From assembly GCA_945867435.1 (NCBI GenBank), contig CAMBIK010000003.1:1-48253 (forward strand): 48,253 nucleotides of DNA, read 5' to 3'. How positions within the stretch are numbered: the first letter of the stretch is position 1; each line of letters opens with the position of its first letter. A program made the position numbers and the translations under genes. This DNA comes from Klebsiella pneumoniae. GTDB lineage: Bacteria; Myxococcota_A; UBA796; SXON01. This document shows, piece after piece, positions 179-41,831 of this stretch. A model generated the notes under the pieces. The model searched no databases and was not told the origin of the DNA. It saw nothing but the letters and a program-made list of their open reading frames with translations.

Positions 179-641
179 GCTCACTCACCTCTCGCCGACC
201 GGCGAGGCCCGCATGGTGGACGTGGGAGAAAAGGAGGTCACGCGCCGGGAAGCGGTGGCCGAGGGGTTTGTGCGCATGTCGCCGGAGGCCCTCGCGGCGG
301 TGGTGGAGCGCCGGGCTCGCAAGGGGGATGTGCTCACGATCGCCCAAGTCGCCGGAATCGCCGCGGCGAAGCGAACCGGAGACCTCATTCCGCTCTGTCA
401 CCCGTTGGGGCTCGATGGCGTGGATGTGACGCTCGTGCCCATCGAAGATGGCCTGCGCATCGAGGCTTCAGCACGTTGCACCGGCAAGACGGGCGTCGAG
501 ATGGAAGCCCTGACCGCCGTGGCGATCGCGGCCCTGACCGTGATCGACATGCTCAAGGCGGTCGACAAGGCCATGCGTGTGGAGGGGGTTCGGCTGTTGC
601 GGAAGTCCGGCGGGCGTTCGGGCGACTGGGAGGCCCCGTGA
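171..641 (+). CDS. moaC: Cyclic pyranopterin monophosphate synthase MoaC
   Basis: LTHL...[48 protein letters not shown] motifs; ATG at 171. Confidence 0.97.
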
Positions 642-1168
642 TCGTCCTCGCGGCGCTGTTCGGTTGCGCCACACAGCCGGAGTCAGAACATTCGGAGGTT
701 ACGGGCTCAATTCCCTGTGATTTGTGTTCCGGGCTTTGCTACGAAACCGACGCGCCGAGCGTGGGAAGCGCGCATGTGTCGGGCGATGTGGTCTACGTCG
801 ATGAGCCTCCCACCTCCGGCGATCACAACCCTTGTTGGGCGGAATGGGGGGTGCACACCGAAGAGGTGGCCGCCGAAAACTGGGTCCACAACCTGGAACA
901 CGGGGGGGTGGTGTTCCTGTACGACTGCCCCGACGACAGCTGCGTGGAAGAAGTGGCCGCGCTCGTGGCCTATGTCGAATCGCTGGCGTCGGGCACCGCG
1001 CTGCTGTCTCCGTACGCGCCCGCCGATCTGCCCTTCACCGTGCTGTCGTGGGAGCACCGTCTGGAATTGGGCTGCTTCGAGCTTCCCTCCCTTCAGGCGT
1101 TCTACACCGCGCATGTCGGCCGCGCGCCGGAAGATGTCACCTCCGGTCCAGGCGCGTCCTGCCTGTAG
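638..1168 (+). CDS. DUF3105 domain lipoprotein
   Basis: GTGA overlap with the moaC stop; [10 protein letters not shown] lipobox; PPTSGDH and [11 protein letters not shown] motifs. Confidence 0.85.
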
Positions 1169-1183
1169 GGCGGGTCCTACAGG
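1162..1183. terminator. Hairpin between convergent genes (possible bidirectional terminator)
   Basis: CCTGTAGG-GCGGGT-CCTACAGG; both convergent TAG stops lie in the arms; no U tract. Confidence 0.35.
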
Positions 1184-1890
1184 TCGGTTTCCAACGTGCC
1201 AGCGCCGGGACTGTCGACCAGGTCGATGGAGCCGTAGTTTCGCGGGTCCGGCAGGGTCTTCGCCCGCGTTTCCAGCGTGCCGCCGAACACGGCAATCTGC
1301 GAGCGGAGCAGCACGCCTTCGGCGCTCAGGACGAATTCGGCTCGACCGCCTTCTCCTTCCACCGCGTACTTTGTGCCCGGGACAGTCTTCCCTGCGACGG
1401 TCACGCTGACGGCTTCGCCCACCCGCAGCTCGCCTTCGAGGATGGCCCCCGTCTCGGCCACCAGGACCCCGACTTTACCCGGGGTGCCGAGGAGTCGGGT
1501 GCGACCGGGGTCGAACAAATCAAGGGTGGTGAAGGCGAGTTCCGACGCTTTCAACACCGATTCATGCAGCCCGGTGCTGTCGGCTCGAACCAACTGCCAC
1601 CCGCCGTTCGGGGCTTGGATCCCCTGCACTTCTGAACGGTCGGTGCCCACCTGAAGCGATGTGGTGAAGCTGGCGCCCCGCCCGCTGGACTGCCCGGATT
1701 GACGGCAGGTCACTTCGCCCATCGGAGAGGTGGCCTGGGTCACCACGCTGAGCACGCGTCGCTCCCCGTCGTCGCGCCGAAGGAAGCGTACTTTGACCGT
1801 GCGATCCCCCACATCCACCCCGGCCAGGAAGATGTCGTAGGCCATCGTGGACTCGTCGGCGTGGGCGAGCGTGGCGAGGAGGAACAACAT
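1177..1890 (-). CDS. Hypothetical exported protein (beta-rich)
   Basis: 237 aa with GC3-biased codons; short signal peptide MLFLLATLAHA (AxA). Confidence 0.8.
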   Translation of the reverse strand: MLFLLATLAHADESTMAYDIFLAGVDVGDRTVKVRFLRRDDGERRVLSVVTQATSPMGEVTCRQSGQSSGRGASFTTSLQVGTDRSEVQGIQAPNGGWQLVRADSTGLHESVLKASELAFTTLDLFDPGRTRLLGTPGKVGVLVAETGAILEGELRVGEAVSVTVAGKTVPGTKYAVEGEGGRAEFVLSAEGVLLRSQIAVFGGTLETRAKTLPDPRNYGSIDLVDSPGAGTLETDL

Positions 1891-2046
1891 CGGAACGATC
1901 CTAACGTGGACTGGGGCTAGTACCGCATGGCGGGTCTGCGGCTGGGTGGGATGGGGACAGCGACACGCCGGGCGCGCTACTGGCGCGACCGCGGCTGTAG
2001 GCCGGAAACCATAGGTTGGAGCCGGGGTACCCGAGTGGATGACGCG

Positions 2047-2076
2047 GTAGGGGAAGGGGCGGCGAGCCCCTTCCTC
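2047..2076 (+). repeat. REP-like palindrome, copy 1 (GTAG + 11-bp stem, GGCGA loop)
   Basis: GTAG-GGGAAGGGGC-GGCGA-GCCCCTTCCTC; same geometry as the copies at 2240 and 3801. Confidence 0.65.
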
Positions 2077-2086
2077 GTACCATGAT

Positions 2087-2149
2087 AGTCACCCATGGCG
2101 CGTTCCGCGCCTCCCAAGTCCATGAAACGTCGGGGCGCCATGGGTGACT
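2087..2149. repeat. Perfect 15-bp inverted repeat with 33-nt spacer
   Basis: AGTCACCCATGGCGC (2087-2101) / GCGCCATGGGTGACT (2135-2149). Confidence 0.85.
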
Positions 2150-2169
2150 GAGGAGAGGGGAGAGCCGCC

Positions 2170-2198
2170 GCCAAGCCGCGTTATCCACGCGGCTTGGC
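2170..2198. repeat. Perfect 12-bp inverted repeat with 5-nt loop
   Basis: GCCAAGCCGCGT-TATCC-ACGCGGCTTGGC. Confidence 0.85.
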
Positions 2199-14076: not shown

Positions 14077-14922
14077 ATGTTGCTGTTCACAGCGTTCGCT
14101 CAGGCTGGTGTTTGGAACGTCTGTGCGGCCACCGAGTCCAACGCCTCGGTCAATGCCGGGTGGACCATCATCGAGGCACGCGATTCGGCGGGCGAACGGG
14201 ATGCCGATAAGGGTAGTTTGGAAGCAGTCAGTACTGTGGTCAAGCGCTTTGAGCCCCGTCGCGAGGAAGACTTCTGCAAGGCTACCGACGGCGTGGGGGG
14301 CGCAACGCAGCGCTGGACCACGGAACTCATCGCCGTGGACATCGTGCCCGGCCAGAAGTCCTGCCCCACCGCGATCTGGGCCGATGCCTACGGGGACACG
14401 GGGGGGCACGCGACCATCACCGCCGAACGGTTGAGCGCCTCGGCGGTGGGTCACGCGGTCACCACGGCTCAGGGGGGCAACACCGGCACCATCAGCGTGG
14501 ATGGCGGCGGCGGTGCCAGCTTCCTGTCTGAATGGTCCTGGCAGGTTCCCGGCCCGTCCGCGGCCGTAGCGGGCGTGGTCAAGGTGGATGCAGCATCGGC
14601 CTACAACGGGGCTATCCTCAACGTTCCCGGCTGGGCGCAGGTCAACTCCTACGGTGGCGTGGTCGATGCGTGGGTGCGCCGAGGCGCCGAGTGGGTCCAC
14701 GTCCAGGGCACGTCGCCGATGGAAATCCCTTTCGGCGCGACCGTGTCTTCGCGCGGCGGGGTGTGTGCGTCGGGCAGGGTTACCGCCGGTTCCCAGGCTC
14801 GCACCGGAGAGTCCAGCGCGGGCGGTTCCGGCATCCACTTCAGCATGGAACCCGTCCACGCCACGGATCCGGTCGACCGCCGCCCCGTCAAGGGACCGAC
14901 GTTCGACCCGTGCGGCTGCTGA
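14077..14922 (+). CDS. Hypothetical exported protein
   Basis: GGAGG RBS; MLLFTAFAQA signal; Gly/Ala/Ser beta-rich; ends in DPCGC. Confidence 0.78.
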   Translation: MLLFTAFAQAGVWNVCAATESNASVNAGWTIIEARDSAGERDADKGSLEAVSTVVKRFEPRREEDFCKATDGVGGATQRWTTELIAVDIVPGQKSCPTAIWADAYGDTGGHATITAERLSASAVGHAVTTAQGGNTGTISVDGGGGASFLSEWSWQVPGPSAAVAGVVKVDAASAYNGAILNVPGWAQVNSYGGVVDAWVRRGAEWVHVQGTSPMEIPFGATVSSRGGVCASGRVTAGSQARTGESSAGGSGIHFSMEPVHATDPVDRRPVKGPTFDPCGC

Positions 14923-15895: not shown

Positions 15896-16441
15896 CTACG
15901 GTGCGGGGCGGCCAACTGCCGGCGCTGCCAGCGCCGCTTCGATCGCCGCCACCAACCCTGGATCCTGGGGTGTGGTCCCCGACCCGAAACGGTGGGTGAC
16001 CGCGCCCGATCGGTCCACCAGGAACTTCTCGAAGTTCCATTTGATCGGCTTGCCGCCGCCCGGTTCGTTGGCCAGCAGCCACTGGTAGAGCGGACTCCGG
16101 CCCGGTCCATTTACATCCGCTTTGTCGAGGATGGGAAAGTCGACCCCGTAGTGAATCTGGCAGAACGAGGCGATCTCCTCCTTGCTGCCGGGCTCCTGAC
16201 CGCCGAACTGGTTGCAGGGCGCGCCCACGACCAGCAGACCCTGATCTTTGTACTTTGAGTACAGTGCCTGCAAACCCTCGTATTGCGGGGTGTAGCCGCA
16301 CTTGCTGGCCACGTTCACGAACAGCAGCACGCGGCCCTCCCCGTTCGGAATCACGGTTCCATCGGCCTCGACCAGAGCAGGGAGCGGGGTGCCCGCTTCG
16401 GCCACGGAGGAACCGGCGAGCAGGGTTAGGATGGGGAGCAT
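15896..16441 (-). CDS. Glutathione peroxidase family protein (Cys type, exported)
   Basis: VNVASKCGYT, PCNQFGGQEPG, WNFEKFL; signal peptide; GAGG RBS before ATG 16441. Confidence 0.95.
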   Translation of the reverse strand: MLPILTLLAGSSVAEAGTPLPALVEADGTVIPNGEGRVLLFVNVASKCGYTPQYEGLQALYSKYKDQGLLVVGAPCNQFGGQEPGSKEEIASFCQIHYGVDFPILDKADVNGPGRSPLYQWLLANEPGGGKPIKWNFEKFLVDRSGAVTHRFGSGTTPQDPGLVAAIEAALAAPAVGRPAP

Positions 16442-16543
16442 GGTCACCTCGGGCTCAGAATACGCACGGCGGCATGGGTGTCAACGGGGGGACTCCCTCG
16501 TGCTACCGTGAACCCGTATTCGACGCAGGCCCGCTCCCCCCGA

Positions 16544-20036: not shown

Positions 20037-20639
20037 CTACTTCCCGAACACGGTCTGGCAGTCCTCAAGCACCTGCGCCGGATGCACGCCGACCGATACT
20101 GAGTCGTACTCGACCAGAAGCACGCCTTCGGCATCGAGAATTCGGGTGACCCGGCTGGCCCAGGCCGCGGAGGTGTCCGCCGCCGCACCGTAGGTCACGG
20201 CGAGGGTCTTCTCCTCGTCCGTCCACAGCTGGAACGCCATGCCCTCTTCCTCGGCCCACGCCTCGTTTTTGCTGGGCGAGTCGAAGCTGATCCCGACAAT
20301 GGAGACCCCCAGCGCATCGAATTCACTTTGGCGGTCGCGGTACCCGCAACCTTCGGTGGTTCACCCAGAGGTCCCGGCGGCTGGGTAGAACCAGATGACG
20401 GTGGGGTGGCCGATGAGGTCGGGGCGGCTGCGTGCGCTCCCGTCCCGGTTCGTGGCGACAAACTCAGGGGCCGGCGTGCGCTCGGTGGCCCACTCTCCGT
20501 TCAGGTTGGTCGCGGTGTCCACCTCGGTGCCCTCGGCTGTGTCGGACGAATCCGCGAGAGGGCCGGAGTCAGCGGCGGAGTCAGAGGCGGTGTCAGGGGC
20601 TTCAGTGAAGGCGCACGACGCGAGCAACAGGAGGGTCAT
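20037..20639 (-). CDS. Selenocysteine-containing BCP/PrxQ peroxiredoxin, lipoprotein (200 aa, UGA at 20361-20363)
   Basis: The track ORFs 20361-20639 and 20037-20240 share a frame. Reading through TGA gives WFYPAAGTSG-U-TTEGC...IVGISFD...LWTD...RVTRILD, matching BCP YFYPKxxTPGCTxEAC. A SECIS follows. Confidence 0.92.
20333..20351 (-). promoter_or_regulatory. Bacterial SECIS element
   Basis: 9 nt after UGA: GGUUGCG-GGUAC-CGCGACC stem-loop with GU in the apical loop, resembling E. coli fdhF GGUUGCAGGUCUGCACC. Confidence 0.82.
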
Positions 20640-20688
20640 TCGGAGCCACTAACCGACCGCCAGCCCAGCCTTGGGGTAGCTTGGGCCG

Positions 20689-23600
20689 ATGCACGAGGTC
20701 CGCCCCTCCAAACTCTGCCTGTGGACCCTGATCTTCGCGGTCTCTTGCGGCGACTCCCTGCCCACCTCTCCAGATCCGGTTGGGGCGGATTCTGCCGACC
20801 CATCCCCCCAGGGCGCGATTCGCATCAACGAAGTCATGACGAAGAACACCGGAAGTTCGGAAGATGGGGCCGGCGATGCCAGCGACTGGATCGAACTTTA
20901 CAACGCGGGTGAAACGGCCGTGGACCTCGCGGGGTGGAGGCTGAGCGCGGGCGGCGAGGAGGCCACGGCCCTCGTATTAGAAAATACCAAGCTGTTGCCT
21001 GGAAACTTCGTGCTTATTTGGGCCTCAGGGAAAGGCGTGGACGGGGCGGCCGGGGAGCTCCACGCAGCGTTCAAGTTGGCCAGCGCCGGGGTCACGGTCG
21101 TGCTTCACTCGCCCGACGGGGAGGAGGCCGATCGCCTGGTGGTTCCTGCCTTGGACGACGACGTGAGCTACGGGCTGGACGAGCCGGTCACCGAGGCGAC
21201 GCTCCTGGCCGCCGGTTCGACTGGCACGTTGATGGACGCCCCAACGGGGGACTGGACCGCCCCGAGCTTCGACGATGCCGCGTGGCATCCCATCATCCTG
21301 CCTGTGGGCTTCGATGGGAGCGTCACGGGCGGGGAACCTGCAGAACGCGCGCTTGAGCGGCCCACGACGCAGTCCAGCGACTACCCCGGGTTTACCGGTG
21401 CCGAGGCCGTGGATGGCGACCCGAACACCTTCTCTCACACCGGCACCGGCGACTTCGAACCCTGGTGGCAGGTCGAGCTCGATGCCGACTACGCCATCTC
21501 CCAAGTTCAGCTCGTGAACCGCTACGGTTGCTGCCCTGAACGGCTCTACAACATCGTTGTAAGCGTGCTCGCGGAAGATGGCCGTGCGGTGTGGGCTAGC
21601 GATGTCCAGAACCCGGTGGCCGAGGGTGAGGCCCCCGTGGCACCCGACCAGGTGATCACGCTGCAGGTCCCCGGGGGGCCGATTGGGCGGTCGGTGCGCG
21701 TCGCAAAGACGGCCGTGAACGGTTCGGCCTCCAGCGAGTGGCTCTCGCTCGCCGACGTTACCGTGACCGGCACCCCCGCCGCCCCGTACAGCGACGACAT
21801 CACGACCGACATCGACATGTGGGTGGATTCTGTCATCATCGGCCTCCGAGTTGCATTTGTGATGGTAGCGGAGCGACCGACACGCGCTGTCCTCACCCTC
21901 GACTACGACGACGGCTTCCTTGCGAGTGTGGACGGCGCCGAGGTCGCCTCCGGCAACGCAGGTGCCCCGATCGAACACGCCGCGGGTCAACCGGAGCGCT
22001 TCCCGGTCGACCTCCGCTCGCTAACGGCGGGGGCCCATCTGTTCGCGCTCCGTGGGGACAATGTCTCGGCCAACGACGACGACTTCCTGATTGCGCCCAC
22101 CCTGACGGCCCAGTGGTTCACCCCCGGCGACCCGGGCTACTTCACGGTGGCGACGCCCGGCGAACCCAACGGCGAAGCCGGAAAGGGCGCGCTTGCCCCG
22201 CCGACCTTCGATCCGCCCCGAGGCTTCTACAGTTCGGTTCAGGCCCTCACCGTTTCGGCCCCGGCCGGCGCCACTCTGGTGTACACCCTCGATGGCACCC
22301 CACCCACCGACGTCAACGGATCGCGACTCTACCCGGCCTCCCCGGCGGCCGTCGCGACCCTAACGATGGATGTCCCGACCACCGCCATCGTGCGAGCGGT
22401 CGCCCTCCGCGACGGCTGGGACGACAGCCGGATTGCGACGCACACCTACCTTTTTCTGGAAGATGTGCTCGCGCAGTCCTCCCGCCCTGCCGGGTTCCCC
22501 TCGACCTGGGAAAGTCAATCGGAAGGCAGCTACACCGCCGACTACGGGATGGACCCGGAGGTGGCGGAGGACCCGCGGTACCGCGCCGAACTGCTCGAAG
22601 GGCTGCGAGAGATCCCGACGCTCTCCATCGTGACCGGCATCGACGACCTCTTCGGCGCCAACGGCCTGTACGCGAACAGTGCTTCCCGCGGCGATGCCTG
22701 GGAACGTCGGGTTTCGCTGGAGTGGATCGAACCCGATGGTTCGACCGGCTTCGCCGAGGATGCCAAGTTGCAGGTGCACGGCTACGGCTGGCGCTACCAT
22801 TCCTCGACCCTCAAGCACAGCTTCCGCATCCAGTTCCAGGCGGAGTACGGGGCGTCGAAGCTGGAATGGCCGATGTTCGCAGACGCCCCCGTTGACCGCT
22901 TCGACAGCATCGTTCTCCGGGCGGGGGGCTCCAAGACCTGGCTTGACTTCCGTGACCCGGCCCAGGCGCAGTACCTCCACGATGCCTTCGCTCGCGACAC
23001 GGCGCGTGACATGGGCAAGGTGGACGGTCACGCCACCTACGTTCACCTGTACCTGAACGGTCTGTACTGGGGCCTTTACATGCCGGTCGAGCGTCCAGAC
23101 GCTGGCTTTGCTGAGGAGTATTTTGGTGGGGACGAGGCGAACTACGACGCCATCAATCGGCGGACCACCACCACGGAGGCCATCGATGGCGACCTGGAGG
23201 CCTACAACACGATGATCGCCCTCGCCGATGGCGACATGACCACCGCCGAAGGTTTGGCGGCGTTGGAAGCCTATCTCGACGTAGACGACCTGATCGACTG
23301 GATGCTCATCCACCAGTACACCACCAACCGCGACGGTCCTTGCTGCTTCGAAGGCAACAACCAACGAGGGATTCGCAAGCGAGAAGTCGGCGCGCAATAT
23401 CAGTTCTTCGTCTGGGACATGGAGTATTCGCTGTGGGAGGCGAGCGACGCCACCAACGTGGATGTGAACGTGGCGGGGCACGCGTCGCACGCCTACCGAC
23501 AGCTTTGGGACAACGCCGAGTTTCGCGAGCGATACTCCGCTCGAGCCCATGTGTTGCTCACCGGTGCTGGTGCGCTGACTCCGGATGCCGCTTCCGCACG

Positions 23601-23799
23601 CTACGAAGCGCGTGCCGACGAGATCTACGCCGCGCTCCTCGCAGAATCGGCGCGATGGGGTGATACATATCGGGCTGTTCCCTACACCCGCGATGTGGAG
23701 TGGCTGGAGGAATACAATCGGTTGCAGGATGAGTATTTCCCCTATCGCACCGACTTTTTGATCGAGCAGCTGCGCGCGGTGGGGCTTTACGACGAGTGA
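20689..23799 (+). CDS. CotH kinase family lipoprotein with lamin-tail, fucolectin/F5-8-like and Fn3-associated domains
   Basis: AVS-C lipobox; INEV...DWIELYN (LTD); AVDG...SHT...PWWQVEL...NR..CC.ERL (FTP lectin); YTLDG.PP; K.SFR, LYLNG.YWGLY..VE, N.D, WDME (CotH). Confidence 0.92.
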   Translation: MHEVRPSKLCLWTLIFAVSCGDSLPTSPDPVGADSADPSPQGAIRINEVMTKNTGSSEDGAGDASDWIELYNAGETAVDLAGWRLSAGGEEATALVLENTKLLPGNFVLIWASGKGVDGAAGELHAAFKLASAGVTVVLHSPDGEEADRLVVPALDDDVSYGLDEPVTEATLLAAGSTGTLMDAPTGDWTAPSFDDAAWHPIILPVGFDGSVTGGEPAERALERPTTQSSDYPGFTGAEAVDGDPNTFSHTGTGDFEPWWQVELDADYAISQVQLVNRYGCCPERLYNIVVSVLAEDGRAVWASDVQNPVAEGEAPVAPDQVITLQVPGGPIGRSVRVAKTAVNGSASSEWLSLADVTVTGTPAAPYSDDITTDIDMWVDSVIIGLRVAFVMVAERPTRAVLTLDYDDGFLASVDGAEVASGNAGAPIEHAAGQPERFPVDLRSLTAGAHLFALRGDNVSANDDDFLIAPTLTAQWFTPGDPGYFTVATPGEPNGEAGKGALAPPTFDPPRGFYSSVQALTVSAPAGATLVYTLDGTPPTDVNGSRLYPASPAAVATLTMDVPTTAIVRAVALRDGWDDSRIATHTYLFLEDVLAQSSRPAGFPSTWESQSEGSYTADYGMDPEVAEDPRYRAELLEGLREIPTLSIVTGIDDLFGANGLYANSASRGDAWERRVSLEWIEPDGSTGFAEDAKLQVHGYGWRYHSSTLKHSFRIQFQAEYGASKLEWPMFADAPVDRFDSIVLRAGGSKTWLDFRDPAQAQYLHDAFARDTARDMGKVDGHATYVHLYLNGLYWGLYMPVERPDAGFAEEYFGGDEANYDAINRRTTTTEAIDGDLEAYNTMIALADGDMTTAEGLAALEAYLDVDDLIDWMLIHQYTTNRDGPCCFEGNNQRGIRKREVGAQYQFFVWDMEYSLWEASDATNVDVNVAGHASHAYRQLWDNAEFRERYSARAHVLLTGAGALTPDAASARYEARADEIYAALLAESARWGDTYRAVPYTRDVEWLEEYNRLQDEYFPYRTDFLIEQLRAVGLYDE

Positions 23800-26110: not shown

Positions 26111-26547
26111 ACCCGCTCTGGCCGCCAGGTCGCCCGGGCGAGGAAGTGCCGGGGGCGTCGTGCGCGTCCTGCGTGTGGCGGCGGCCGGGGAAACGCTTCG
26201 ACCGTTGCATCCGCCACGGCGGTGCGTCCGTGAAAGCGGATTGGCCGGCTTGTCCGGCGCACACCCGCGAATCCGCCCTGGACTGCCTCAGTTGCGGCGC
26301 GTGCTGCCGCGAGGCCTACCACACCGTTGAGGTGTCGCGCCGCGATCCCTTCGTGCGCCTGCACCGCGAACTGACCCACGAGCAGGATGGCCGCCTCCAT
26401 GTGCGGCGGTCGGGGCCTCGCTGCATCTGCCTGGGCGATGACTTTCGATGCGCCCACTACGACGACCGGCCCCGGACTTGCCGGGACTTCGTGCGGGGGG
26501 GGCCCAACTGCGCGGAGGCGCGTCAGCGCGTGAAGCTCACGGCTTAG
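26104..26547 (+). CDS. YkgJ (CxxCxxCC) family cysteine-cluster protein
   Basis: CLSCGACC, C..L....C..Y..RP.TCR.F; extra N-terminal CxxC...C...C module; ATG overlaps the upstream stop. Confidence 0.88.
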   Translation: MVNPLWPPGRPGEEVPGASCASCVWRRPGKRFDRCIRHGGASVKADWPACPAHTRESALDCLSCGACCREAYHTVEVSRRDPFVRLHRELTHEQDGRLHVRRSGPRCICLGDDFRCAHYDDRPRTCRDFVRGGPNCAEARQRVKLTA

Positions 26548-27640
26548 GCGGACCAGCAGGTTTGGCGATGTCTTCCTTGTTCTTCTGCCAGGTGTCGAGC
26601 ATTCGCTGTTCCTTGCGACGGGTCTTGCCGCCGAAGCGGTAGCTCAGCTCCCAGGTGCTGAGCACCCACGCGCCGGGAAGGCTGGACACGCCAGCGCCGG
26701 CTCTCGCTTCCCAGTGTTCCCAACAGAACTGCCAAGCGATGCTCGCCATGCCGGCGTCGAGGGGGGAGATGAACCCGTCCTGGTCGAGCGCGTCTTCCAG
26801 CCCGAGGAAGGTGGGAACATAGAGATCCTGGTCATGTTCCACGTCCGAGTAGATCGTGGCGGAGGCTTGGATGACGATCGCATCTCGCCGGTTGAAGCGG
26901 ATGTCTGTGGCAAACTTCACGCCGACGGACTCAACGTGCAGCAGGGAGCCCGCGTGGTCGGGGTTGCCCGTGCCGCTGTCGTCGAGAAACCAGAGCAGCT
27001 GAGGAATCGATTCCAGGTTGATGTCGCCCGCGAGCTGGGCTCGGGTGTAGCTGCCGCCAATATGAATCCCCCAGGGCGGGGCGACCTGGAAGGAGGCGAT
27101 CGTGCCGGCCGTCAGCAGCGAGGCATCGAAGTCGGTGCGGACGAGCGAGTCGTATTCCACCCACGCCGCCATATCGAACATCCCCTTGTCCGTGGCGTGG
27201 ATCTTCGCTTGCACGTTGGGAATTCCCAGCACATCCAGCGGCACGCTGGTCCCGACCTGAACGTGGGGCAGGATGCCGATGGAAAGATTGCTCACGCCGA
27301 GCTTCACTTCGCCCCACTCCAGGGTGTAGGCCGTGAAATCGACCTGACCCCGAGGGTTGGCGGGCAGGTGGTAGGGGCTCGGCTTGAAGAAGCGCAGGAG
27401 CTTTTTGCTGAGGGTGGGGATCTCCTCCGCCTCGGACAGGTCGGGTCGGGTCGGCGAGGGTTCGGCGGGCGGTGCCGAAGCGGTCGGAGCTTCCGCTGGA
27501 GGCGGAGCTACGGGGGGAACTTCCGCCGGAATCGACTCGGCCGGCGGCAGGGCTGGCGGCGCATTCTCCTCAGGAGGCGGTGCCGGGAGCGTGTCGTCGG
27601 CAAAGGCGCTGGAGGGGATCAGGAGGAGGAGGGTGAGCAT
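26537..27640 (-). CDS. Hypothetical exported or outer-membrane protein with a Pro-rich N-terminus
   Basis: GGAG RBS; AFA signal; alternating beta strands with aromatic ends (WELSYRFGG). Confidence 0.78.
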   Translation of the reverse strand: MLTLLLLIPSSAFADDTLPAPPPEENAPPALPPAESIPAEVPPVAPPPAEAPTASAPPAEPSPTRPDLSEAEEIPTLSKKLLRFFKPSPYHLPANPRGQVDFTAYTLEWGEVKLGVSNLSIGILPHVQVGTSVPLDVLGIPNVQAKIHATDKGMFDMAAWVEYDSLVRTDFDASLLTAGTIASFQVAPPWGIHIGGSYTRAQLAGDINLESIPQLLWFLDDSGTGNPDHAGSLLHVESVGVKFATDIRFNRRDAIVIQASATIYSDVEHDQDLYVPTFLGLEDALDQDGFISPLDAGMASIAWQFCWEHWEARAGAGVSSLPGAWVLSTWELSYRFGGKTRRKEQRMLDTWQKNKEDIAKPAGPPKP

Positions 27641-29672: not shown

Positions 29673-31031
29673 ATGACCCACATCCTGCTTGCGTGCGACA
29701 CCGCCCCGGCCGAGCACGACTCGGTCGACTCGGTCGACTCGGCCGATACGGCGGTCGTGGAGGACCTGGTTTTGGTGCCCCAGATCACCCACGGGGACAC
29801 TCCGGTGCAACGCGTGCGCTGGTCCACGCCGGAACCCACGACAGGGCGGGTGGAGTACGGCGTGGATGGGCTCGACCGCGTGGCGGAAGACGATGTTGTC
29901 GGCACGGAACACGACGTAATCGTGGCTGGGATCGCGGCCGGGTACGGATGGCAACTGCGCGTGGTGTCGGAAGCGGGGGGAACGCGGTGGGAAAGTGACC
30001 TGGTGAACATCGAGGCCGTGTCGGCCCCGATCGCGATGCCGCTCCCCATCCTGGCCGTGCCGCCCGCGGAAGGCGTGGAAGGCTTCGAGTTGATGCCCCT
30101 GCCTGCGAAAGAGGGGGCGTACATCGCGATGCTCAATCGTTTAGGAGAGGCCGTGTGGTGGAGCGCGCCCTCTCCGCAGTTCGTTTATCGGGCACGGTAC
30201 GACAGCGTAAATCACACGGTGACGTGGGTGGCGGCCAGTCAATCCACGGGAGAACAGACGTTCATCACCAGCACCCTCGATGGCGAGGAGACTCGGGTCG
30301 CCGCCCCGATCTCCTCCCACGCCGACTTCACGTTGCTGCCGGATGGCGGCTTCCTGGTCCTTGCGCTGGAAGACCGCGATGTGGACGGGCAGCGCGTGCG
30401 TGGGGAGACCCTTCAGGAGGTCTCTCCCGACGGTACGACCCGCCAGATCTGGAACTCCTGGGATCAGTTCAGTTGGTCGGGGGGCGGGCATGTGGTGGAG
30501 GGGAAATGGATCGAATGGCCGCACGCCAACTCAATCTCCTACGACTCCGATAGTCGCAAGGTGTTCGTTTCCCTGTTTTACCTGGATGCGGTCGCGCAGA
30601 TCGACCGCGACACGGGCGCCTTGGACTGGTTGCTCGGTGGCGAGTTTTCAGACTGGACCGTGCTCGGAGATGGCTTTGCCGGCCAGCATGCGCCCGAGGT
30701 TCACGAGGCCGGGCGGCTGCTTGCCCTGATGAACAACGGTGCGCCGGGCACGCCGGTGGAAGCAGCCATCGCGATGGCCTACGACCTCGACCCGGACACG
30801 CTGATCGCGACCCCGCGCTGGCAGTTCGATGACGCCGCCAGCCACCTCGGCGTTATCCTCGGCAACGTGTCGTGGATCGGTCCCGACGACGCCGTGGTGA
30901 ACTGGGGTTCGTCCGGCGTGCTCCAGCGCGTGAACGCCGCGGGGGAGGTGCGCTGGGAGGTGGATTTCGGAATTGGCGAGTTCGCCCAGTTCAGCGACCA
31001 CGTCGCCAGCATGGCGGGGGCCGTGCGCTAG
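29673..31031 (+). CDS. Aryl-sulfate sulfotransferase (ASST)-like beta-propeller lipoprotein
   Basis: MTHILLA-C; HANS..YD, ID..TG...W.LGG, QH and NNG motifs; N-terminal Fn3-like domain. Confidence 0.8.
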   Translation: MTHILLACDTAPAEHDSVDSVDSADTAVVEDLVLVPQITHGDTPVQRVRWSTPEPTTGRVEYGVDGLDRVAEDDVVGTEHDVIVAGIAAGYGWQLRVVSEAGGTRWESDLVNIEAVSAPIAMPLPILAVPPAEGVEGFELMPLPAKEGAYIAMLNRLGEAVWWSAPSPQFVYRARYDSVNHTVTWVAASQSTGEQTFITSTLDGEETRVAAPISSHADFTLLPDGGFLVLALEDRDVDGQRVRGETLQEVSPDGTTRQIWNSWDQFSWSGGGHVVEGKWIEWPHANSISYDSDSRKVFVSLFYLDAVAQIDRDTGALDWLLGGEFSDWTVLGDGFAGQHAPEVHEAGRLLALMNNGAPGTPVEAAIAMAYDLDPDTLIATPRWQFDDAASHLGVILGNVSWIGPDDAVVNWGSSGVLQRVNAAGEVRWEVDFGIGEFAQFSDHVASMAGAVR

Positions 31032-32887: not shown

Positions 32888-33006
32888 CGGGGCTCCGGGG
32901 AAGGGGGGGCCGCGTATCGCGTCTGGCGAGTGACCAGGAACCAACAGGGCTGCGCCCGCGTACGTGTCTTCCACGTCGGCTATACTGCCCGGCCCCCGGA
33001 GAAACG

Positions 33007-33984
33007 ATGCCTCGACCCGACGATGCCACGCTGCGCCGCACGCTGACCGCCATGCAGTACCAAGTCACCCAGGCCGATGCCACGGAACCGCCGTTCCGGA
33101 ACGCCTTCTGGGACCACCACGAGGCGGGAGACTACGTGTGCATCGTGAGCGGAGATCTGCTCTTCAGGTCGGAGGACAAGTTCGACTCAGGCACAGGATG
33201 GCCAAGCTTTACCCAGCCGATTCGCGCTGAAGCCGTGACCATGAAGGCGGATGGGTCCGGGGGGCGGCAGCGCGTGGAGGTGCGCTCCGCGGAGGGGGAT
33301 TCGCACCTCGGTCATGTTTTCCGCGACGGCCCCGCGCCGACCGGGATGCGGTACTGCATCAACTCAGCCTCGCTGCGCTTCGTTCCGCGAGCAGGCGCGG
33401 CGACAGCGGACTTGGCAGCCTTTGCCGCCACCTCCTGCGCCATCTCGGCTCCCGCGGTTGGCTGCGCCACCACCCTGGAGACCGCCATCCTCGCCGGGGG
33501 CTGCTTCTGGGGCATGGAGGAGCTGCTTCGGGCCGTACCCGGGGTGTTGGAAACGGAGGTCGGGTACACCGGCGGCGCCCTGGCGAACCCCGACTACACG
33601 GCCGTTCGCACGGGCCGCACCGGCCACGCCGAAGCCCTTCGCGTGACGTTCGACCCTGCGGTGCTGCCGTTCACCGAGCTGCTCCGTTCGTGGTTCTTCC
33701 TCATGCACGACCCGACCACGACCAACCGCCAGGGGAACGACATCGGCACCCAATATCGCTCGGCCATCTTCTTCACGACGGATGAGCAGAGGATTACCGC
33801 CGAATCGGTGAAGGCGCAGGTCGGGGCGTCGGGACAGTGGCACGCCCCCATCGTGACCGAGATCGTCGCGGCCGGCGACTTCACCCGCGCCGAGGACTAC
33901 CACCAGCGCTACCTCGAAGAGAATCCGGGTGGATACACCTGCCACTTCATGCGGAGGCCCAAGCCCGCAGGTGGTCGGGGCTGA
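33007..33984 (+). CDS. msrAB: Bifunctional methionine sulfoxide reductase, MsrB-MsrA order
   Basis: [32 protein letters not shown] (MsrB); GGCFWG, GHAE, HDPT..NRQGND.G.QYRS, AE.YHQ.Y, GYTC (MsrA); GGAG RBS; TATACT at 32981. Confidence 0.96.
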
Positions 33985-33987
33985 CCG

Positions 33988-34404
33988 ATGCTCCTGCTCA
34001 TCCTCGCCTGCTCGGACCGCGGAACAAGCCCTCCGCCCCCGGTGCCCGCCGCGCCCGTGGGGATGGATGGACTCGGCGGCGGCACCACCACCATGGGCAT
34101 TCCCATCCCCCCCCGGGCACCGCCGCCTCCTCGGAAAAGCGAGGTCTGCCCTGAATGGGCGGATGGCGTCGTGGTGCCATCCGCTCTCTCCATCGTCGAG
34201 TGTACGGCCGGTCGGGTGGCCATGACCGGGCTCGCAGACGTGGTGGCGGCGTGCGGGGAGGTCCACGCGGAACTAGTTCGGGCGGGTTGGGAGCAGCGTG
34301 CCGCCGGCGTGTTCAGGTACGAACTCACCCGCGGCTCCCGCAAGGCCGAGCTGTTTTGTGCCGAGACCCCGGCTGGAATCGTCGTTACTCTCGCCGCGGA
34401 GTAG
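33988..34404 (+). CDS. Hypothetical lipoprotein
   Basis: MLLLILA-C; Pro-rich linker; four further Cys; 3 nt after the msr stop. Confidence 0.72.
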   Translation: MLLLILACSDRGTSPPPPVPAAPVGMDGLGGGTTTMGIPIPPRAPPPPRKSEVCPEWADGVVVPSALSIVECTAGRVAMTGLADVVAACGEVHAELVRAGWEQRAAGVFRYELTRGSRKAELFCAETPAGIVVTLAAE

Positions 34405-34639
34405 CGCGAGCGATCCCCGAGACCGCTTCCTCCCCGTTTCTCCTGACGCCCCACGACCGTAAGCGCAGGGATGAAGCGAAAGCCAATCGCCCCACGCCCG
34501 CCCCCCGAGTACGCGTTCGCCCTCACGACTGAACCGGCTCGCGGTGCAGGCCATGTGGTGGATGCCACGCGCACCTGTGGCGCGGCCCTGATGTGGGCGG
34601 GCGAAGTGGAGACGCTTCTGCCTGTGCCTCTTTCCGACC

Positions 34640-36544: not shown

Positions 36545-38635
36545 CTACAAGTCCTTCACGAACTCGTAGTAGTCGGCGAAGTGGACGCGATTCACCTGCT
36601 TCCCCATCTTGATCATCTCTCGAGCCACGGCTTCCACGGCATGGCGCATGCACACTTGTTCCCGCCGAGCGGAAGCCAGAATGCACGCGTTGATCGCGCT
36701 GTTCACGATGCCGCCGCCGGCCAGGGCGAACTGGTTGGCCAGGTAGGCCAGGTCGAGATCGTCTCCCCGCGGGGCGGAGGGGGGAATCGCCTTTTCCCAG
36801 AGCTTCTGCCGCATTTCGGCGGTGGGCATCGGAAACTCGACCACCGCGCCGAACCGACGCAAGAACGCTTCGTCGATGTTCTCCTGAAGGTTGGTGGTGA
36901 GGATGGCGCAGCCCTCGAACACTTCGAGACGTTGCAGGAGGAAGCTGACTTCCTGGTTGGCGAAGCGGTCCTGCGCCTGCTTTACTTCGCCACGCGAACC
37001 GAACAAGGCATCGGCTTCGTCGAAGAGGATCACGGCCGTTCCGCCCTCTGCGGCATCGAAGATCTCCCGCAGGTTCTTCTCCGTTTCACCCACCCACCTG
37101 GAGATCACGCTGGAGAGATCCACGCGAAACAGGTCCAGGCCCAGCGACCCGGCGATGACCTCGGCGGCCATGGTCTTGCCCGTGCCGGGGCCGCCTGAAA
37201 ACAAGGCTTTGATGCCGTAGCCCCGCGCCCGGACCTTGCTGCCGCCCCAGCGGTGGTACACATTTTCCTGTTCGGACAGGTAGTGCGTGAGATGGTGAAG
37301 CTGGTCCTTCACCTTGTCGGTGATGATCAGGTCATCCATCTTGAACTGGGGGATGACATGCTGGGCGAGCCCCTTGAACTCGGGGCGGGACAGCTCCCGC
37401 GCGGCAGACCACAACAGCTCGACCGCCGGTTCTCTCCCGCCCGCCTCGGCCGCGGCGCGTTCGATCACCCGCGGAATCGTGGTGCCGCCGACGCTGTAGA
37501 AGCGTTCGGAGATGTCAGAAGCGATGGCGGCCGACCATCCCTTCCGCTCCAGCGATACGGTCCATGCTTCGACCCTTTCTTCCAGGGTCGTGCGGCCGAC
37601 GTGTACGGTAACGCTGGGCCGTTCCGCCCCTAAGAGCCCCGAGATCGCCCGGCGGTCGCTTCCCGAGACCAGGACCGGGTAGGGCAGCGTGGCCAGCGCC
37701 ACCCCGAGGGCCATCAGCCCGTTTCGAAGCGCGGGATCTTCCTGAGCCGGCGCCACGTTGATCACATACGGGAGCGCCCCGCTCAAGCGCAGCTCCCGGA
37801 TGAGATCCCAGGGCTCATCCAGGTATTGCCGGGCTCGTTCCAGATCGATCCGGACCAACGGACGGCCGACGAAGCGGGCGAGCGACTGGGCCACCCCTTC
37901 CCGCAGGCCCACCGTGCTGCCGACCACCGCTACGGTGACGGCGGTCTTGAGGGTGTCCCCGAGGTCTTCGATCCGGCTCCGGGTGGGCGCCGGGATGAAC
38001 GGTTCGAGGCGGGTATCGATGGGGGTGAAGCCGACGCCGGCCGGAAGTTCCCCTTCCTCCAGAAACCACCTTACCAGTCGCGGGGTTGGGTGGAGGCGGC
38101 GCGAGGTGTGGGTTTCAAAGCCATCGGGCGGGTTCAACAGCAGCAGTCGGTTTCGGACCAGCGCCCCGCCGGGCAGAAGCCGGGATTGCAGGGCGAGTCG
38201 CTCGCGGCGCCCGGCGCGCAGCACGCGCGTGGCCATGTCCACTGTAAGGTAGGCCTGGTTCAGATTGTCGTTGAGGTAGGCAAAGATCTTGCCGTACCCC
38301 GCGCTGATTTCGGGAGCGAGGGCGAGCAGCACCAGGTCGGCATCATCCCCATCGAGGTCGAAGGCTTCCCGAAACAGGGAAAAGCGGCCTCCCGGCGCGT
38401 CGCGCATCGCGGTGGAGGCGAGTACGGCTTCTTCCAGCCCATCCGGCCCGCTGGCGTAGTCGATTTCGCCGTGGGCACGCAAGAGCGCATCCACTTCGTC
38501 GTCGGTGATCACCGAGCCCCAGAACTGGCCTTTGGCGCGCATCGCCGGTCGCGAACGCTGCCGCCGCACCGCCCGCAGCAGCAACAGGTCGGTGCGACGG
38601 AGCCGCCGGGCGAGGTCATCGAACACGTTGTCCAT
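36545..38635 (-). CDS. AAA+ ATPase resembling Afp15/Pvc15 (contractile injection system type)
   Basis: I.DDEVDALL and LAPE....Y..IFAYLND N-region; degenerate first AAA module; [42 protein letters not shown]. Confidence 0.88.
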
Positions 38636-38667
38636 CGCGGCTGAGCGTAACGTGGTACACCGGGGCC

Positions 38668-39507
38668 ATGCTGCTCTTCTGCCTGTTCGCCTGCTTCACT
38701 CGCCCTGATCCCGCCTTCGACTCGGCCGGGGACACCGCTGCCGACACCGCCGCCGACACCGCTGCCGACACGGACTGCGGAAGCGACGCCGACTGCGACG
38801 GCTACCTAGTGGACGACGACTGCGATGACCAGGACGCCCTGATCCACCCTGGAGCCGCCGAATCCTGCGATGGTCTGGACAACGACTGCGACACCGAGGT
38901 CGACGAGGAAGCAGGGGGCACCTACTACACCGACGCGGATGGCGATGGCTACGGGGATCCGGCGGGGGCGATGCAGGCGTGCGAACGCCCTGAACAGGCC
39001 GCCGACAACGGGGCCGACTGCAACGACACCGACTCCGGCATCCATCCCGACGCCGAAGAGGTTCCCAACGGCCTGGACGACAACTGCGATGGGCAGGCCG
39101 ATGAGGGCCTTTCGAGTGGGGCGACCCTCACCGCCGTAGACGTGGCGTGGGACAGCAGCGGAGCCTCCATCACGGTGGAAGGCTCGGCTGCGGGCTGGAG
39201 CCTCGGCATCGCGGAAACGCGCGCGGGGGACCAGGGGTGGTACGGTGAATCCTGCATCCTCGGCAGCCAGCCGCTGGGGTACGACGACTACGGGTGGGAT
39301 GTCTGTCACACCCTGGGGGCCGCGGGGGGGCGCCTGACCGGCGTGTTTACCCCGAGCGATGTCGAAGATGGGAGCACCCTGTTCAACGACACGCTGGATG
39401 CCGCCGGAAACATGACCTACATGCTCACCGCAGACGATGCCTCGGCCTGTTGGGTGTGGGGGAATGAGCCTCGGTACTATGTGGCCTTTGGATGCACGGA
39501 GATCTGA
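38668..39507 (+). CDS. Lipoprotein with MopE-type putative metal-binding repeats
   Basis: MLLFCLFA-C; (DTAA)x3; two DC.D.D..IHP.A.E...G.D.(D/N)CD...DE repeats; DADGDGYG. Confidence 0.9.
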   Translation: MLLFCLFACFTRPDPAFDSAGDTAADTAADTAADTDCGSDADCDGYLVDDDCDDQDALIHPGAAESCDGLDNDCDTEVDEEAGGTYYTDADGDGYGDPAGAMQACERPEQAADNGADCNDTDSGIHPDAEEVPNGLDDNCDGQADEGLSSGATLTAVDVAWDSSGASITVEGSAAGWSLGIAETRAGDQGWYGESCILGSQPLGYDDYGWDVCHTLGAAGGRLTGVFTPSDVEDGSTLFNDTLDAAGNMTYMLTADDASACWVWGNEPRYYVAFGCTEI

Positions 39508-39665
39508 AGGCGTGAGCACGCGAAAGCCCCGGCGGCCACCTCGGGCCGCGTCGCCCTCCGGCGCCGGCAGCCTCCTCCAGCTCCGTGAGCCCCTGGCTCT
39601 CTTCCAGGGTCGGCCAAGGACTCGCACCCTCGATGATCTCGGCCATCCCTAGCTGAAGCGCGCCC

Positions 39666-40538
39666 CTACCAAATCTTCCACCACGCCTTCTTCTGCTCTT
39701 CGGCGGGCGCGGGAGTCGCTGCGGGGGTCGGCACCGGGCCGAATGACGTGACTGAAACGGGCGGCGTGGGCTTCAGGGTGACCGCGGCGGCCGCGCGTGA
39801 GCGGGGTGGTGCCTTCACCGCAGCGGCTTCCGCCGCTGTCGCAGAAGGGGCCACAGGGGGGGCAACGGCGCGAGCGAGTTCGTCGGTGTTGGCGTCGTCG
39901 TCGAACGGGACGGTGCCTGCCGGCATGGGCTTTTCCGCCGCCGGCACGGCCGCTTCCGCCACCGGCTTGGCCGCAGGCTTCTTCTTCCCCGGGGCCTTTT
40001 TCTTGGTCGGCGGGGCGGCGGGTGCGAGCAGGGCGGCGAGCCCGGTCACATCCGCAGCGGCGGCGGCCAGCACGGCGACAGGATCTTCCGCCCGGACGAT
40101 CTTCCGCCGCGTGAAGAACGACGATGCCGACTTCGGCGCGCCGGCCGTTCCCGCAAGGCCCACCACATCAAGGCCCCAGGCGGCGACAGTCAAGAACTCT
40201 CCGAGCGTGCGCGCCACCACGATCGACCCTTCGATCGGGTTGGCGATGTACACGACCGGACAATCGGCCCATGGGCGTTCCTCTCGCCGCCACAGCGCGT
40301 AAAATCCTCCTTTCCCGCGCCGGAGGAAGCCGAGCAGCTGGGGCAGGGCCGGGTGGGAAGCCCCGATCTGGTCGGCCAGCGCAGCCGGATCGACCAATTC
40401 CACCTCGGCGAAGGGTGCCCAGGTCCCGACGCGGGCCTTGGCGAAGCCTTCCGACGACAGGAATGCGGCAGGCACTTCGCCGCGAAAGACGTTGGCGACA
40501 AAGCCGGCGTAAGCGTGAGCGGGGGCGGCCATCAGCAC
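39666..40538 (-). CDS. Hypothetical protein: SUKH/SMI1-like N-domain, Pro/Ala linker, KKAWWKIW tail
   Basis: GG.YALW...PVVYI....G..VVA.TL.EFL resembles SUKH immunity folds; the start may be ATG 40532. Confidence 0.7.
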   Translation of the reverse strand: MLMAAPAHAYAGFVANVFRGEVPAAFLSSEGFAKARVGTWAPFAEVELVDPAALADQIGASHPALPQLLGFLRRGKGGFYALWRREERPWADCPVVYIANPIEGSIVVARTLGEFLTVAAWGLDVVGLAGTAGAPKSASSFFTRRKIVRAEDPVAVLAAAAADVTGLAALLAPAAPPTKKKAPGKKKPAAKPVAEAAVPAAEKPMPAGTVPFDDDANTDELARAVAPPVAPSATAAEAAAVKAPPRSRAAAAVTLKPTPPVSVTSFGPVPTPAATPAPAEEQKKAWWKIW

Positions 40539-40571
40539 CTCGAACGAAAGGCTAACCCAACGCCTGCCGGT

Positions 40572-41831
40572 TCATTCAACTACGTCGTCGATGCCCCTCG
40601 GCTCGATCAGGAATTGAGGCACATCGTCGTAGCTCGTGTAGTAGAGCGGGCCCGTGATGCTGGACCAGGTCGTGCCTGGCTCCGCCTCAATCTGCATGAA
40701 CAGGTTGTCGATGTACAGCCCACGGTCGGTGAGCACTGTGCCCCATTCATCGACCGAAACCGCGGTCAGCCCCTCGACCTGGATGAGCGCGGACTGCCAT
40801 GGCTCCCAGTCCGCCACGTCGGCAGGGACGGTCGAAACGGTGGGCTCCGCCACGCCGGTCTCCACCATCGTGCCCCCCCCAAACAAGCTGATCTCCATCA
40901 ACCCGTAGTAGTTGGAGACCGTGCCCGTCACGTCGAACGTCATGCCGGGCTCCCACCAGGTCCACCCTGCCGGGTCGTACACCACGATGCCGCTGGATTC
41001 GCCCCCCCCCGCGTCCTGTACGAAGAGGTACGTGCGGTCCTTGTCTTCGCCGAAGCTGGGGGCGGTCGAAACCACGCCGACCACCCGTACGGGGCCGCAT
41101 ACGCCATCGGTACGGATGCCGTGTACGGTGGTATCGACCGTTGCGCCCGGCCCGTAGCCGCCCAGGTCCGCGGCGGTCCGATTGTTCAAGGACCATGCTT
41201 CGTACTGGTAGAATACGATGCCCGTCACGCTGTCGAAGTGACCGCGGCAGTCGTAGTCGTTGTACATGAAGCCGTCGTCGAGGCCGATGCCAGCGGTGAG
41301 CATCCCCGTGCTGTAGGCGTTGATCGATTCCACGGTCTGGTCGGTCACGGTCACAGGCACGCTCTCCCACGCATCCCAATCCACGCCGACGCCATCCCCA
41401 AGGTCGGCGGGAGCGGGCAGAGTGCCCTGGCCGGTGCGTTCGATGGAGGAAGCATCCCCCACGACCAGCTCGGTCCACCCGAAGTAGTCGCTGATCTTGC
41501 CGCTGATGGTGACTTCGTCCCCCACCGCGAGCGAAAGTTCGCTTCCGAACTGACCCTGGGACCACACATAGAGGCCGCTGCGCTCGCCGCCCGCCGGGTC
41601 CTGGACGAAGAACCCGTCGGACTTGCCGCTGTCGGTGTCGGCGCGGGTCAAGGGCGAACTGACCAGGATGCCGGTCAGCGTGACCGTTTCGCCGTCACCC
41701 ACGTCGCCGTTGCGCACGTCGAAGATTGTTGCGCCGCCTCCGCCGCCTCCCGAGTCGCCGCCATCGGAAGCGGTGTCCGTGTCCTTTGCAACCGGATCGA
41801 GGCAGGCGGAAAGCGTGAAGAGGGCGAACAT
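40572..41831 (-). CDS. Lipoprotein with tandem YhcR-type OB-fold repeats
   Basis: GGAG RBS; LSA-C; two units FVQD..GGE.SG..V...G....V.G..S.Y.G..E...W..W(E/Q)S. Confidence 0.85.
   Translation of the reverse strand: MFALFTLSACLDPVAKDTDTASDGGDSGGGGGGATIFDVRNGDVGDGETVTLTGILVSSPLTRADTDSGKSDGFFVQDPAGGERSGLYVWSQGQFGSELSLAVGDEVTISGKISDYFGWTELVVGDASSIERTGQGTLPAPADLGDGVGVDWDAWESVPVTVTDQTVESINAYSTGMLTAGIGLDDGFMYNDYDCRGHFDSVTGIVFYQYEAWSLNNRTAADLGGYGPGATVDTTVHGIRTDGVCGPVRVVGVVSTAPSFGEDKDRTYLFVQDAGGGESSGIVVYDPAGWTWWEPGMTFDVTGTVSNYYGLMEISLFGGGTMVETGVAEPTVSTVPADVADWEPWQSALIQVEGLTAVSVDEWGTVLTDRGLYIDNLFMQIEAEPGTTWSSITGPLYYTSYDDVPQFLIEPRGIDDVVE

Follow-up and report, generated by a model that had tools for sequence, protein, structure and literature searches.

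The window analysed here, a stretch of 48,253 nucleotides, is contig C3 of assembly G000, a Myxococcota genome of 3.79 Mb in 301 contigs with a G+C content of 66% and a completeness of 76%. Lake and freshwater metagenomes hold DNA near-identical to the window, and its source is an uncultured lake myxobacterium. Along the window, a series of genes for predicted lipoproteins and other putatively exported proteins starts with very short peptides, which are comprised of the initial Met, a few hydrophobic residues, and either a lipobox Cys or an AxA-like cleavage site, with no Lys or Arg (Table 1). The carriers include members of the DUF3105, arylsulfotransferase (ASST), MopE, ExeM/NucH-like nuclease, peroxiredoxin, and glutathione peroxidase families. 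Two of the genes, starting at 27640 (-) and 16447/16441 (-), are additions to those listed by the first-pass annotation.

Table 1. Window genes with putative short signals, and one gene with a canonical signal for contrast (ORF, open reading frame)
Predicted product	Coordinates	Strand	Signal	Start and family evidence
DUF3105 lipoprotein	638..1168	+	V(M)IVLAALFGC at 638-667; Cys residue 10, no K/R	Pfam DUF3105, E 1.4e-28
Exported protein, AxA type	1177..1890	-	MLFLLATLAHA/DEST, 11 residues	First start past stop; TAGGAT box at -13; weak DUF6134 match
Exported protein, AxA type	14077..14922	+	MLLFTAFAQA/GVW, 10 residues	First start past TAG 7 codons upstream; GGAGG 5-9 nt upstream
Glutathione peroxidase	15896..16447 (start 16447/16441)	-	(VT)MLPILTLLAGSSVAEA/GTP, short, uncharged	Pfam GSHPx, E 6e-35, domain from residue 37
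Peroxiredoxin-type lipoprotein	20043..20639	-	MTLLLLASC	TAG 3 codons upstream of ATG; AhpC/TSA match
CotH/LTD protein (contrast)	20689..23799	+	MHEVRPSKLCLWTLIFAVSC, canonical lipoprotein signal of 20 residues	TAGCTT box (20677-20682) exactly at -12; TAG 3 codons upstream
Exported protein	26537..27640	-	MLTLLLLIPSSAFA/DDTLPAPPPEE, 14 residues, uncharged	First start of its ORF; no family match
Arylsulfotransferase-like lipoprotein	29673..31031	+	MTHILLAC (Cys 8), then DSVDSVDS	Pfam ASST, E 2e-11
Candidate Pro-rich lipoprotein	33988..34404	+	MLLLILAC	TGA 1 codon upstream; no family match
Lipoprotein, 634 aa	34640..36544	-	V(M)LALALWISC	Codon score 113
MopE-type Cys-rich lipoprotein	38668..39507	+	MLLFCLFAC, then DTAADTAADTAADT	First start of its ORF; Pfam Cu-binding_MopE, E 2e-20
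ExeM/NucH-like lipoprotein	40572..41831	-	MFALFTLSAC	NCBIfam ExeM_NucH_DNase domain, E 1.5e-15

All nine N-termini quoted in the first-pass annotation are present in the window, as are the acidic D/T/S linkers that it had described behind the short signals; at 638 and 36544, however, the start codon is GTG and not ATG. In seven of the nine (1890, 14077, 20639, 33988, 36544, 38668, and 41831), the start is the first ATG, GTG, or TTG past an in-frame stop. Three starts had been described as impossible to extend (20639, 33988, and 36544), and in-frame stops indeed lie 3, 1, and 0 codons upstream of them; the distances at 29673, 14077, and 41831 are 2, 7, and 9 codons, respectively. At 29673, only GTG-GGC stands between the TAA and the ATG, and the alternative GTG start would add just two uncharged residues. 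The GTG start at 638 overlaps the stop codon of ORF 126-641 (GTGA) and has GGGAGG 5-10 nt upstream, and the sole farther in-frame start is a TTG at 476, 54 codons upstream. At 36544/36545 (-), the TAG of a gene for a 696-aa AAA+/winged-helix ATPase abuts the GTG that opens the gene for the 634-aa lipoprotein; the two share one frame, and no base lies between them. For the gene at 33988, the coding evidence is weak (codon score 2.9, GC3 0.78).

Short N-termini of this kind are found throughout the genome. Genes were called with our own codon-likelihood caller, which under-calls and yielded 2182 genes in G000, 2001 of them with a complete 5' end; lipobox N-termini were then selected with our own lipobox and hydropathy filter, taking the most upstream ATG, GTG, or TTG as the start. 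This gave 250 lipobox N-termini. Even from the most upstream start, the Cys falls at residue 7-13 in 102 of them, most often at 9 (short-only class), and 90 of these 102 contain neither Lys or Arg nor any other charged residue before the Cys. The observation that the first-pass annotation had made in the window is, hence, confirmed genome-wide. A test for the RR motif of twin-arginine (Tat) signals was negative, these 90 of 102 having zero Arg. A canonical-only class comprises 43 of the 250; its signals are themselves short (mean 18 residues, often M-R-x).

The short-lipobox pattern is more than chance: of the 2001 first start codons, 79 match a stricter form of it, whereas among 53,876 internal codons of start type 77 do. 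Short AxA-type signals, defined by a run-length and polarity filter as Met and 7-13 uncharged residues followed by a polar segment, were found at 64 of the 2001 first starts, and most of the cases among those listed end in AxA-like triplets (AHA, AFA, ASA, AAA), as judged by eye. An artefact of high G+C content was considered and rejected, because the genomes G033 (61% GC) and G032 (54% GC) yield no short cases with the same pipeline.

The short signals would disappear if the starts had been mis-called, that is, if the true proteins began upstream, from a non-canonical start codon, by stop read-through, or after a frameshift, and had ordinary signals. In favor of this, a start farther upstream is available in 105 of the 250 lipobox cases, one of the ten G000 matches to the survey pattern described below is preceded by RKELLM and may be canonical, and some TGA codons in G000 are probably read as selenocysteine. 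One such codon concerns the window itself. The 92-aa ORF at 20639 is not a complete gene but the front of a 199-aa peroxiredoxin-type lipoprotein gene (20043-20639, -) read via an in-frame TGA. This TGA, at 20361-20363, falls within the FYPxxxTxxC active-site stretch, and reading it as U changes the AhpC/TSA match from E 0.0078 (profile positions 3-39) to E 3.4e-24 (positions 3-121 of 124). The codon probably specifies selenocysteine, which would make the product a selenoprotein. The search for a selenocysteine insertion sequence (SECIS) after this TGA gave an 8-bp hairpin from 12 nt downstream, but the 77-nt stretch folds no better than its shuffles (z = 0.25).

Several observations argue against mis-called starts. 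An in-frame stop lies at most 13 codons before the Cys in 37 genes. The stops upstream of the 79 pattern starts are of all three kinds (TGA 37, TAG 36, TAA 6), and for this reason stop-codon recoding was also rejected as the cause. The outgroup genomes yield zero short cases by the same method. Two further lines of evidence, the promoter geometry and the orthologues of one gene, place the start at the short signal itself; taken together, they leave mis-called starts largely refuted and scarcely credible.

The first line is a -10-like box. Of the 79 starts, 44% have T at -12 and 46% have A at -11. The hexamer TANNNT begins exactly at -12 in 15 of the 79 (19%), and at any other offset in at most 4%; at -12 it precedes 4% of all first starts and none of 1902 internal ATGs. 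Allowing for -13 to -11, it is found at 21 of the 102 short-only starts, compared with 3 of 102 at control offsets. In the whole gene set, a box exactly 12 nt before the start occurs in 100 of 1893 genes vs 38 at the control offset. Such a box would put the 5' end of the mRNA at the start codon; this geometry suggests leaderless mRNAs in a subset of the genes, and the overall counts suggest that leaderless mRNAs are widespread in G000. The high frequency of TAG stops four codons upstream is likewise accounted for by this geometry.

Canonical signals are preceded by the box no less often (8 of 43) than short ones (21 of 102); it therefore validates the starts and does not explain the shortening. 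The same signature is present in the related genomes G010, G012, and G013 and absent from the sampled parts of G032 and G033. We also calculated a leaderless index, defined as TANNNT-N6-ATG against its reversed control. Over 81 genomes of the class, its correlation with the trait is weak (Spearman 0.39 with the index as excess per Mb and 0.26 with it as a ratio, neither being corrected for relatedness), and an index of at least 2 is reached in 13 of 57 low-trait genomes, 9 of them from family f8. Leaderless transcription was therefore rejected as the cause of shortening, given the equal frequency of the box before canonical signals, the weak correlation, and the high index in low-trait genomes.

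The second line comes from the ExeM/NucH-like gene at 41831. In nine of nine congeners, its orthologues (58-71% identity) have an ATG at the aligned place, and their Cys is residue 10 or 11. Upstream of the ATG, conservation persists at the DNA level, with the frame broken by stops or indels; the frame shifts and the ATG stays. The Cys is kept in 10 of 10 orthologues. Some 10-35 nt upstream, 10 of 10 congeneric genomes (L001-L010) retain the non-coding DNA GTGTAGACAGC...GCTAACCCGGA, which may be a promoter or another regulatory site.

Three metatranscriptome runs contain 7-9% of the sampled words of window positions 33000-42900, covering parts of 38668-39507 and 40572-41831; these data are contigs, which cannot map 5' ends. 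One contig of 162 nt from run X19 spans window positions 41673-41834, its end lying 3 nt before the 41831 ATG. A leaderless or near-leaderless mRNA would fit this, although a contig end proves nothing.

The same pipeline was applied to samples of six further genomes (0.40 Mb of G010, 0.31 Mb of G012, 0.40 Mb of G013, 0.21 Mb of G044, 0.40 Mb of G032, and 0.40 Mb of G033). Short-only signals made up 13 of 34 lipobox hits in the genome of the same genus (G010), 8 of 15 in that of the same family (G012), and 6 of 11 in that of the same order (G013). A genome of the same class (G044, 73% GC, 90 genes) gave 0 of 2 hits, too few to use, and two outgroup Myxococcota from outside the class gave 0 of 33 (G032) and 0 of 39 (G033). 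Short signals are, hence, common to the genus, family, and order samples, with the reservation that relatives of G000 are non-independent samples.

For a wider survey, we used a DNA pattern for M-h5-[AG]-C as a proxy, where h is any codon with T in the second place, and applied it to 81 genomes of the class; the status of most of them rests on this single pattern. The reversed pattern, used as a control, had 0-1 matches per genome. The ORF context was checked in G000 only, where 10 of 10 matches open ORFs of 138-1003 aa, 5 of them with no upstream in-frame start and 1 of them possibly canonical. The window's own family, f1, had 3-42 matches per genome in 10 genomes. Among the 11 genomes of f2, the counts were 91, 59, 48, and 13, the rest having at most 6; among the 19 of f4, they were 17 and 10, the rest having at most 5. 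The seven genomes of f6 had at most 7 matches each, and those of f3 and f7 at most 2, compared with at most 3 in the 28 genomes from other orders of the class. Overall, at least 10 matches were found in 15 of the 53 genomes of the order and at least 5 in 22 of 53, whereas none of the 28 from other orders reached 5. The genome G106 (9.4 Mb in a single contig) and its congener G115, both of the order, had 10 and 17 matches, respectively. As scored by these patterns, the trait is present in parts of a single order, and the class's remaining orders show no more than background. G120 and G125 (genus g72 of f2) stand far ahead of the rest in matches to the eight-residue pattern, with 91 and 59, mostly MLLLLLAC-like, and would provide the best comparison material.

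The proteins that carry short N-termini include some that have to be exported. All four TolC-family (OEP) genes of G000 start with short signals (MMLLLASLALAA, VILFLAALAAAG, MFIWLFSIGAAA, and MMLVLLASASALT), as do four of the seven OmpA-domain genes that were inspected, out of 16 matched. On the other hand, BamA, BamD, LolA, and a Pal-sized OmpA lipoprotein of G000 retain signals with Lys or Arg, and therefore the short and canonical types coexist in this genome. Homologues from the outgroups have a canonical signal with Lys or Arg at the same point, which also supports the short starts; for example, G000 has MTLFSLVLLTGC/GSGTWTV where the outgroup has MNTKTLLIFLALSLSLAAITAC/GDDDD...TLTV. In the MTLFSLVLLTGC family, all 11 comparable copies found outside the order but inside the class have Lys or Arg ahead of the core; of the order's own 17 copies other than those in G000, 4 are short and uncharged.

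These carriers bear on another explanation, in which the short hydrophobic N-termini would stay uncleaved as membrane tethers, or would serve as tags in some other process, the Cys or AxA being incidental. In favor of this, the peptides are too short for a bilayer-spanning helix, and their cleavage and lipidation are predicted, not observed. Yet an [AGS]-C lipobox or an AxA-like end stands at a fixed place and is followed by linkers rich in Pro, Asp, Ser, and Thr; the Cys is found in 10 of 10 orthologues of the 41831 gene; where the short signal ends, homologues have canonical signals that are cleavable; proteins of the TolC family have to arrive at the outer membrane; and Lgt, LspA, and Lnt are encoded. 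We consider tethers or tags very unlikely.

A separate observation concerns the lipoprotein gene at C250:672-1391 (-) of G000. It is 93% identical to a gene of G104, from another family of the order, and was not found in any of the nine genomes sampled from the window's family, making gene transfer or a mis-binned contig possible.

It is probable, in our view, that the short N-termini are real and act as minimal Sec-type signal peptides of both kinds, lipobox and AxA-like. As predicted, they are Sec-type signals stripped to Met, core, and cleavage site. In the first kind, Met, 5-11 uncharged Leu-rich residues, and the lipobox Cys would lead into the Lgt, LspA, and Lnt route; in the second, Met and 7-13 uncharged Leu-rich residues ending in an AxA-like site would lead to signal peptidase I. 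A large part of the secretome, in the family and in some other lineages of the order, would have lost the basic n-region or kept just one Arg of it.

The composition of the signals in G000 differs between the classes: the fraction of Leu is 0.42 in short and 0.25 in canonical signals, the mean hydropathy is 2.92 vs 2.62, and Lys or Arg occurs within +1 to +6 behind 15% of short vs 37% of canonical signals. A very hydrophobic and very short core beside the unblocked or formylated Met would suffice to open the translocon (SecYEG). Such short cores would favor insertion with the N-terminus in and the C-terminus out, ahead of acidic mature N-termini. In the endoplasmic reticulum (ER), short segments of a Leu7-25 series favor translocation of the C-terminal side (Wahlberg and Spiess 1997, PMC2139883). 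Downstream, the lipobox or AxA site alone would be enough for the enzymes. Lgt, LspA, and signal peptidase I work on the lipobox or AxA from the outer side of the membrane (PMC8048626), and therefore they would need little of the upstream peptide.

Several points weigh against minimal Sec-type signals. All counts are heuristic and approximate, as both the caller and the signal filters are home-made, and the 105 of 250 lipobox cases with a longer possible start remain ambiguous. Motifs resembling a Shine-Dalgarno sequence precede 28 of the 102 short-only starts only, and the transcript contigs say nothing of 5' ends. As a helix, a 6-9-residue core would not reach across the bilayer. In E. coli, a lost positive charge is reportedly compensated by a longer core, not a shorter one. 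Finally, the net charge over +1 to +15 is -1.98 behind short and canonical signals alike; the short class thus shows no charge compensation of its own, and an acidic mature N-terminus as a substitute for the missing charge was rejected.

The first-pass annotation had gone further and proposed that the minimal signals imply adapted export and lipidation machinery. The signals themselves hold up, being found genome-wide, in relatives, and on proteins that must be exported, with the outgroups at background, but none of the features scored in Lgt, LspA, and SecY tracks the trait. G000 encodes four Lgt (C60, C121, C71, and C123), two LspA (C60 and C205), and two Lnt (C146 and C36), all above curated cut-offs and with ordinary family scores; lspA and lgt are adjacent on C60. 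The copy number of Lgt is 1-6 in 61 of 61 Myxococcota sampled, regardless of the trait, and a second LspA copy is also present in genomes outside the order. Extra Lgt and LspA paralogues were rejected as an adaptation, since the copy numbers vary over the phylum regardless of the trait.

The single SecY (C158:5638-6663) also has an ordinary family score. Compared with E. coli K-12, five of its six pore-ring positions are Ile, I187 is replaced by Ser, F192 by Thr, and F286 by Ala. Position 187 is a pore-ring residue, and prlA suppressors map to neighboring pore positions (PMC2171872, PMC8082313). Among 142 diverse SecY representatives, this position is I in 74, V in 27, M in 13, A in 11, S in 8, T in 8, and P in 1; among 119 close homologues (down to 60% identity), it is S in 101, A in 17, and T in 1. 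As Ser or Ala is common to 118 of these 119, the change is old and general in the group. The homologues at 75-93% identity have the source labels Deltaproteobacteria, Myxococcales, or Myxococcota bacterium. For position 286, a search with the pattern PIFAS-x4-AP returned the SecY-like PIFASSVLMAP (Ala286) in five of five genomes from the genus to which the window belongs and also in G085, a genome with no trait matches; Ala286 was not found with this pattern in 10 other genomes with at least 10 trait matches. Neither F286A nor I187S follows the trait, and both were rejected as the adaptation. Of the proteins that the first-pass annotation had suggested inspecting, Lgt and LspA, scored by copy number, and SecY, scored at pore positions, thus gave no change that tracks the trait.

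Export via such short signals might still need a lineage-specific change in targeting or translocation, such as a natural prl-like SecYEG, modified SecA, SRP, or YidC, or a different membrane. Such a change would add to minimal Sec-type signals and not replace them. The confinement of the trait to parts of one order points this way (at least 10 matches in 15 of 53 genomes, and at least 5 in 0 of 28 elsewhere), as do Ser187, Thr192, and Ala286 of SecY, Ser187 being present in only 8 of the 142 diverse representatives, and the mapping of prlA suppressors to pore positions (PMC2171872). Against it, Ser or Ala at 187 is common to nearly all close homologues, Ala286 is limited, among the genomes compared, to the window's genus and the trait-free G085, and the copy numbers of Lgt and LspA are as described above. 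Moreover, one gene family switches between short and canonical forms from genome to genome within the order, which looks like gradual loss under tolerance. On balance, we regard a need for adapted machinery as possible but doubtful. Equally tentative is its most explicit form, a natural "prl-like" state in parts of one Myxococcota order, in which some change in targeting, translocon gating, or the membrane would let uncharged peptides of 7-13 residues serve as general export and lipidation signals for well over 100 proteins per genome, including those of the TolC family.

The predicted signals share parts with several known systems. With the canonical signals for Sec and signal peptidase II (E. 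coli Lpp type), they share a hydrophobic core leading to a lipobox with an invariant Cys and then a flexible linker, and Lgt, LspA, and Lnt are encoded; they differ in having no positive n-region (90 of 102), the Cys at 7-13, and a core of 5-9 residues. The PROSITE rule PS51257 places the lipoprotein Cys at about residue 15-35. With signals for Sec and signal peptidase I, the putative AxA-type signals would share a hydrophobic core ending in small -3/-1 residues (AHA, AQA, AFA, ASA, AAA), followed by a polar mature part; here, however, the total is 10-14 residues with no Lys or Arg (64 of 2001 genes in G000). The canonical lipobox is [LV][ASTVI][GAS]C (PMC8048626).

Like E. coli prlA (secY) suppressors, G000 would export proteins with defective or minimal signals, and its SecY has Ser at the pore-ring position 187. 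The prlA changes affect pore and plug positions, among them G69, I191, I278, S282, and I408 (PMC2171872). In contrast to prlA, the state here is natural and secretome-wide, and the scored SecY changes do not track the trait; membership in a prlA-like group is therefore not supported. In the oligo-leucine signal-anchor series of the ER, short segments (from Leu7) favor the N-in/C-out orientation (PMC2139883) and could replace the orienting N-terminal charge; that series differs in using eukaryotic Sec61, engineered proteins, and uncleaved anchors. Deinococcus deserti combines a TAnnnT motif with leaderless mRNAs, as reported in the accessible part of PMC4007540. It shares with G000 the -10 TAnnnT directly upstream of the start codon, so that transcription starts at or next to the AUG, and that part of the paper contains no mention of shortened signal peptides. 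In G000, by comparison, the leaderless signature also precedes canonical signals, and it is seen in trait-free sister lineages. A full-text literature search, with subscription journals and supplements outside its reach, returned no description of such signals in bacteria.

The textbook signal peptide has roughly 20 residues and a basic start. To our knowledge, predictors build in its tripartite form (a basic n-region, a core of 7-15 residues, and a cleavage region), which is taken to hold universally. If a clade exports much of its secretome by Met and 6-12 uncharged residues, as predicted here, it would test which parts of this rule are mechanistically required. If the prl-like state were true, the basic n-region and a membrane-spanning core would not be universal needs of bacterial Sec export. 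Standard predictors would miss such signals, so that the secretome and lipoprotein counts for abundant freshwater and soil Myxococcota are probably strongly too low, and gene callers may choose wrong starts in such genomes. The peptides would also represent a natural library of minimal signals for export engineering. Finally, the graded spread of the trait over 53 related genomes makes its genetic basis, if any, findable by comparison.

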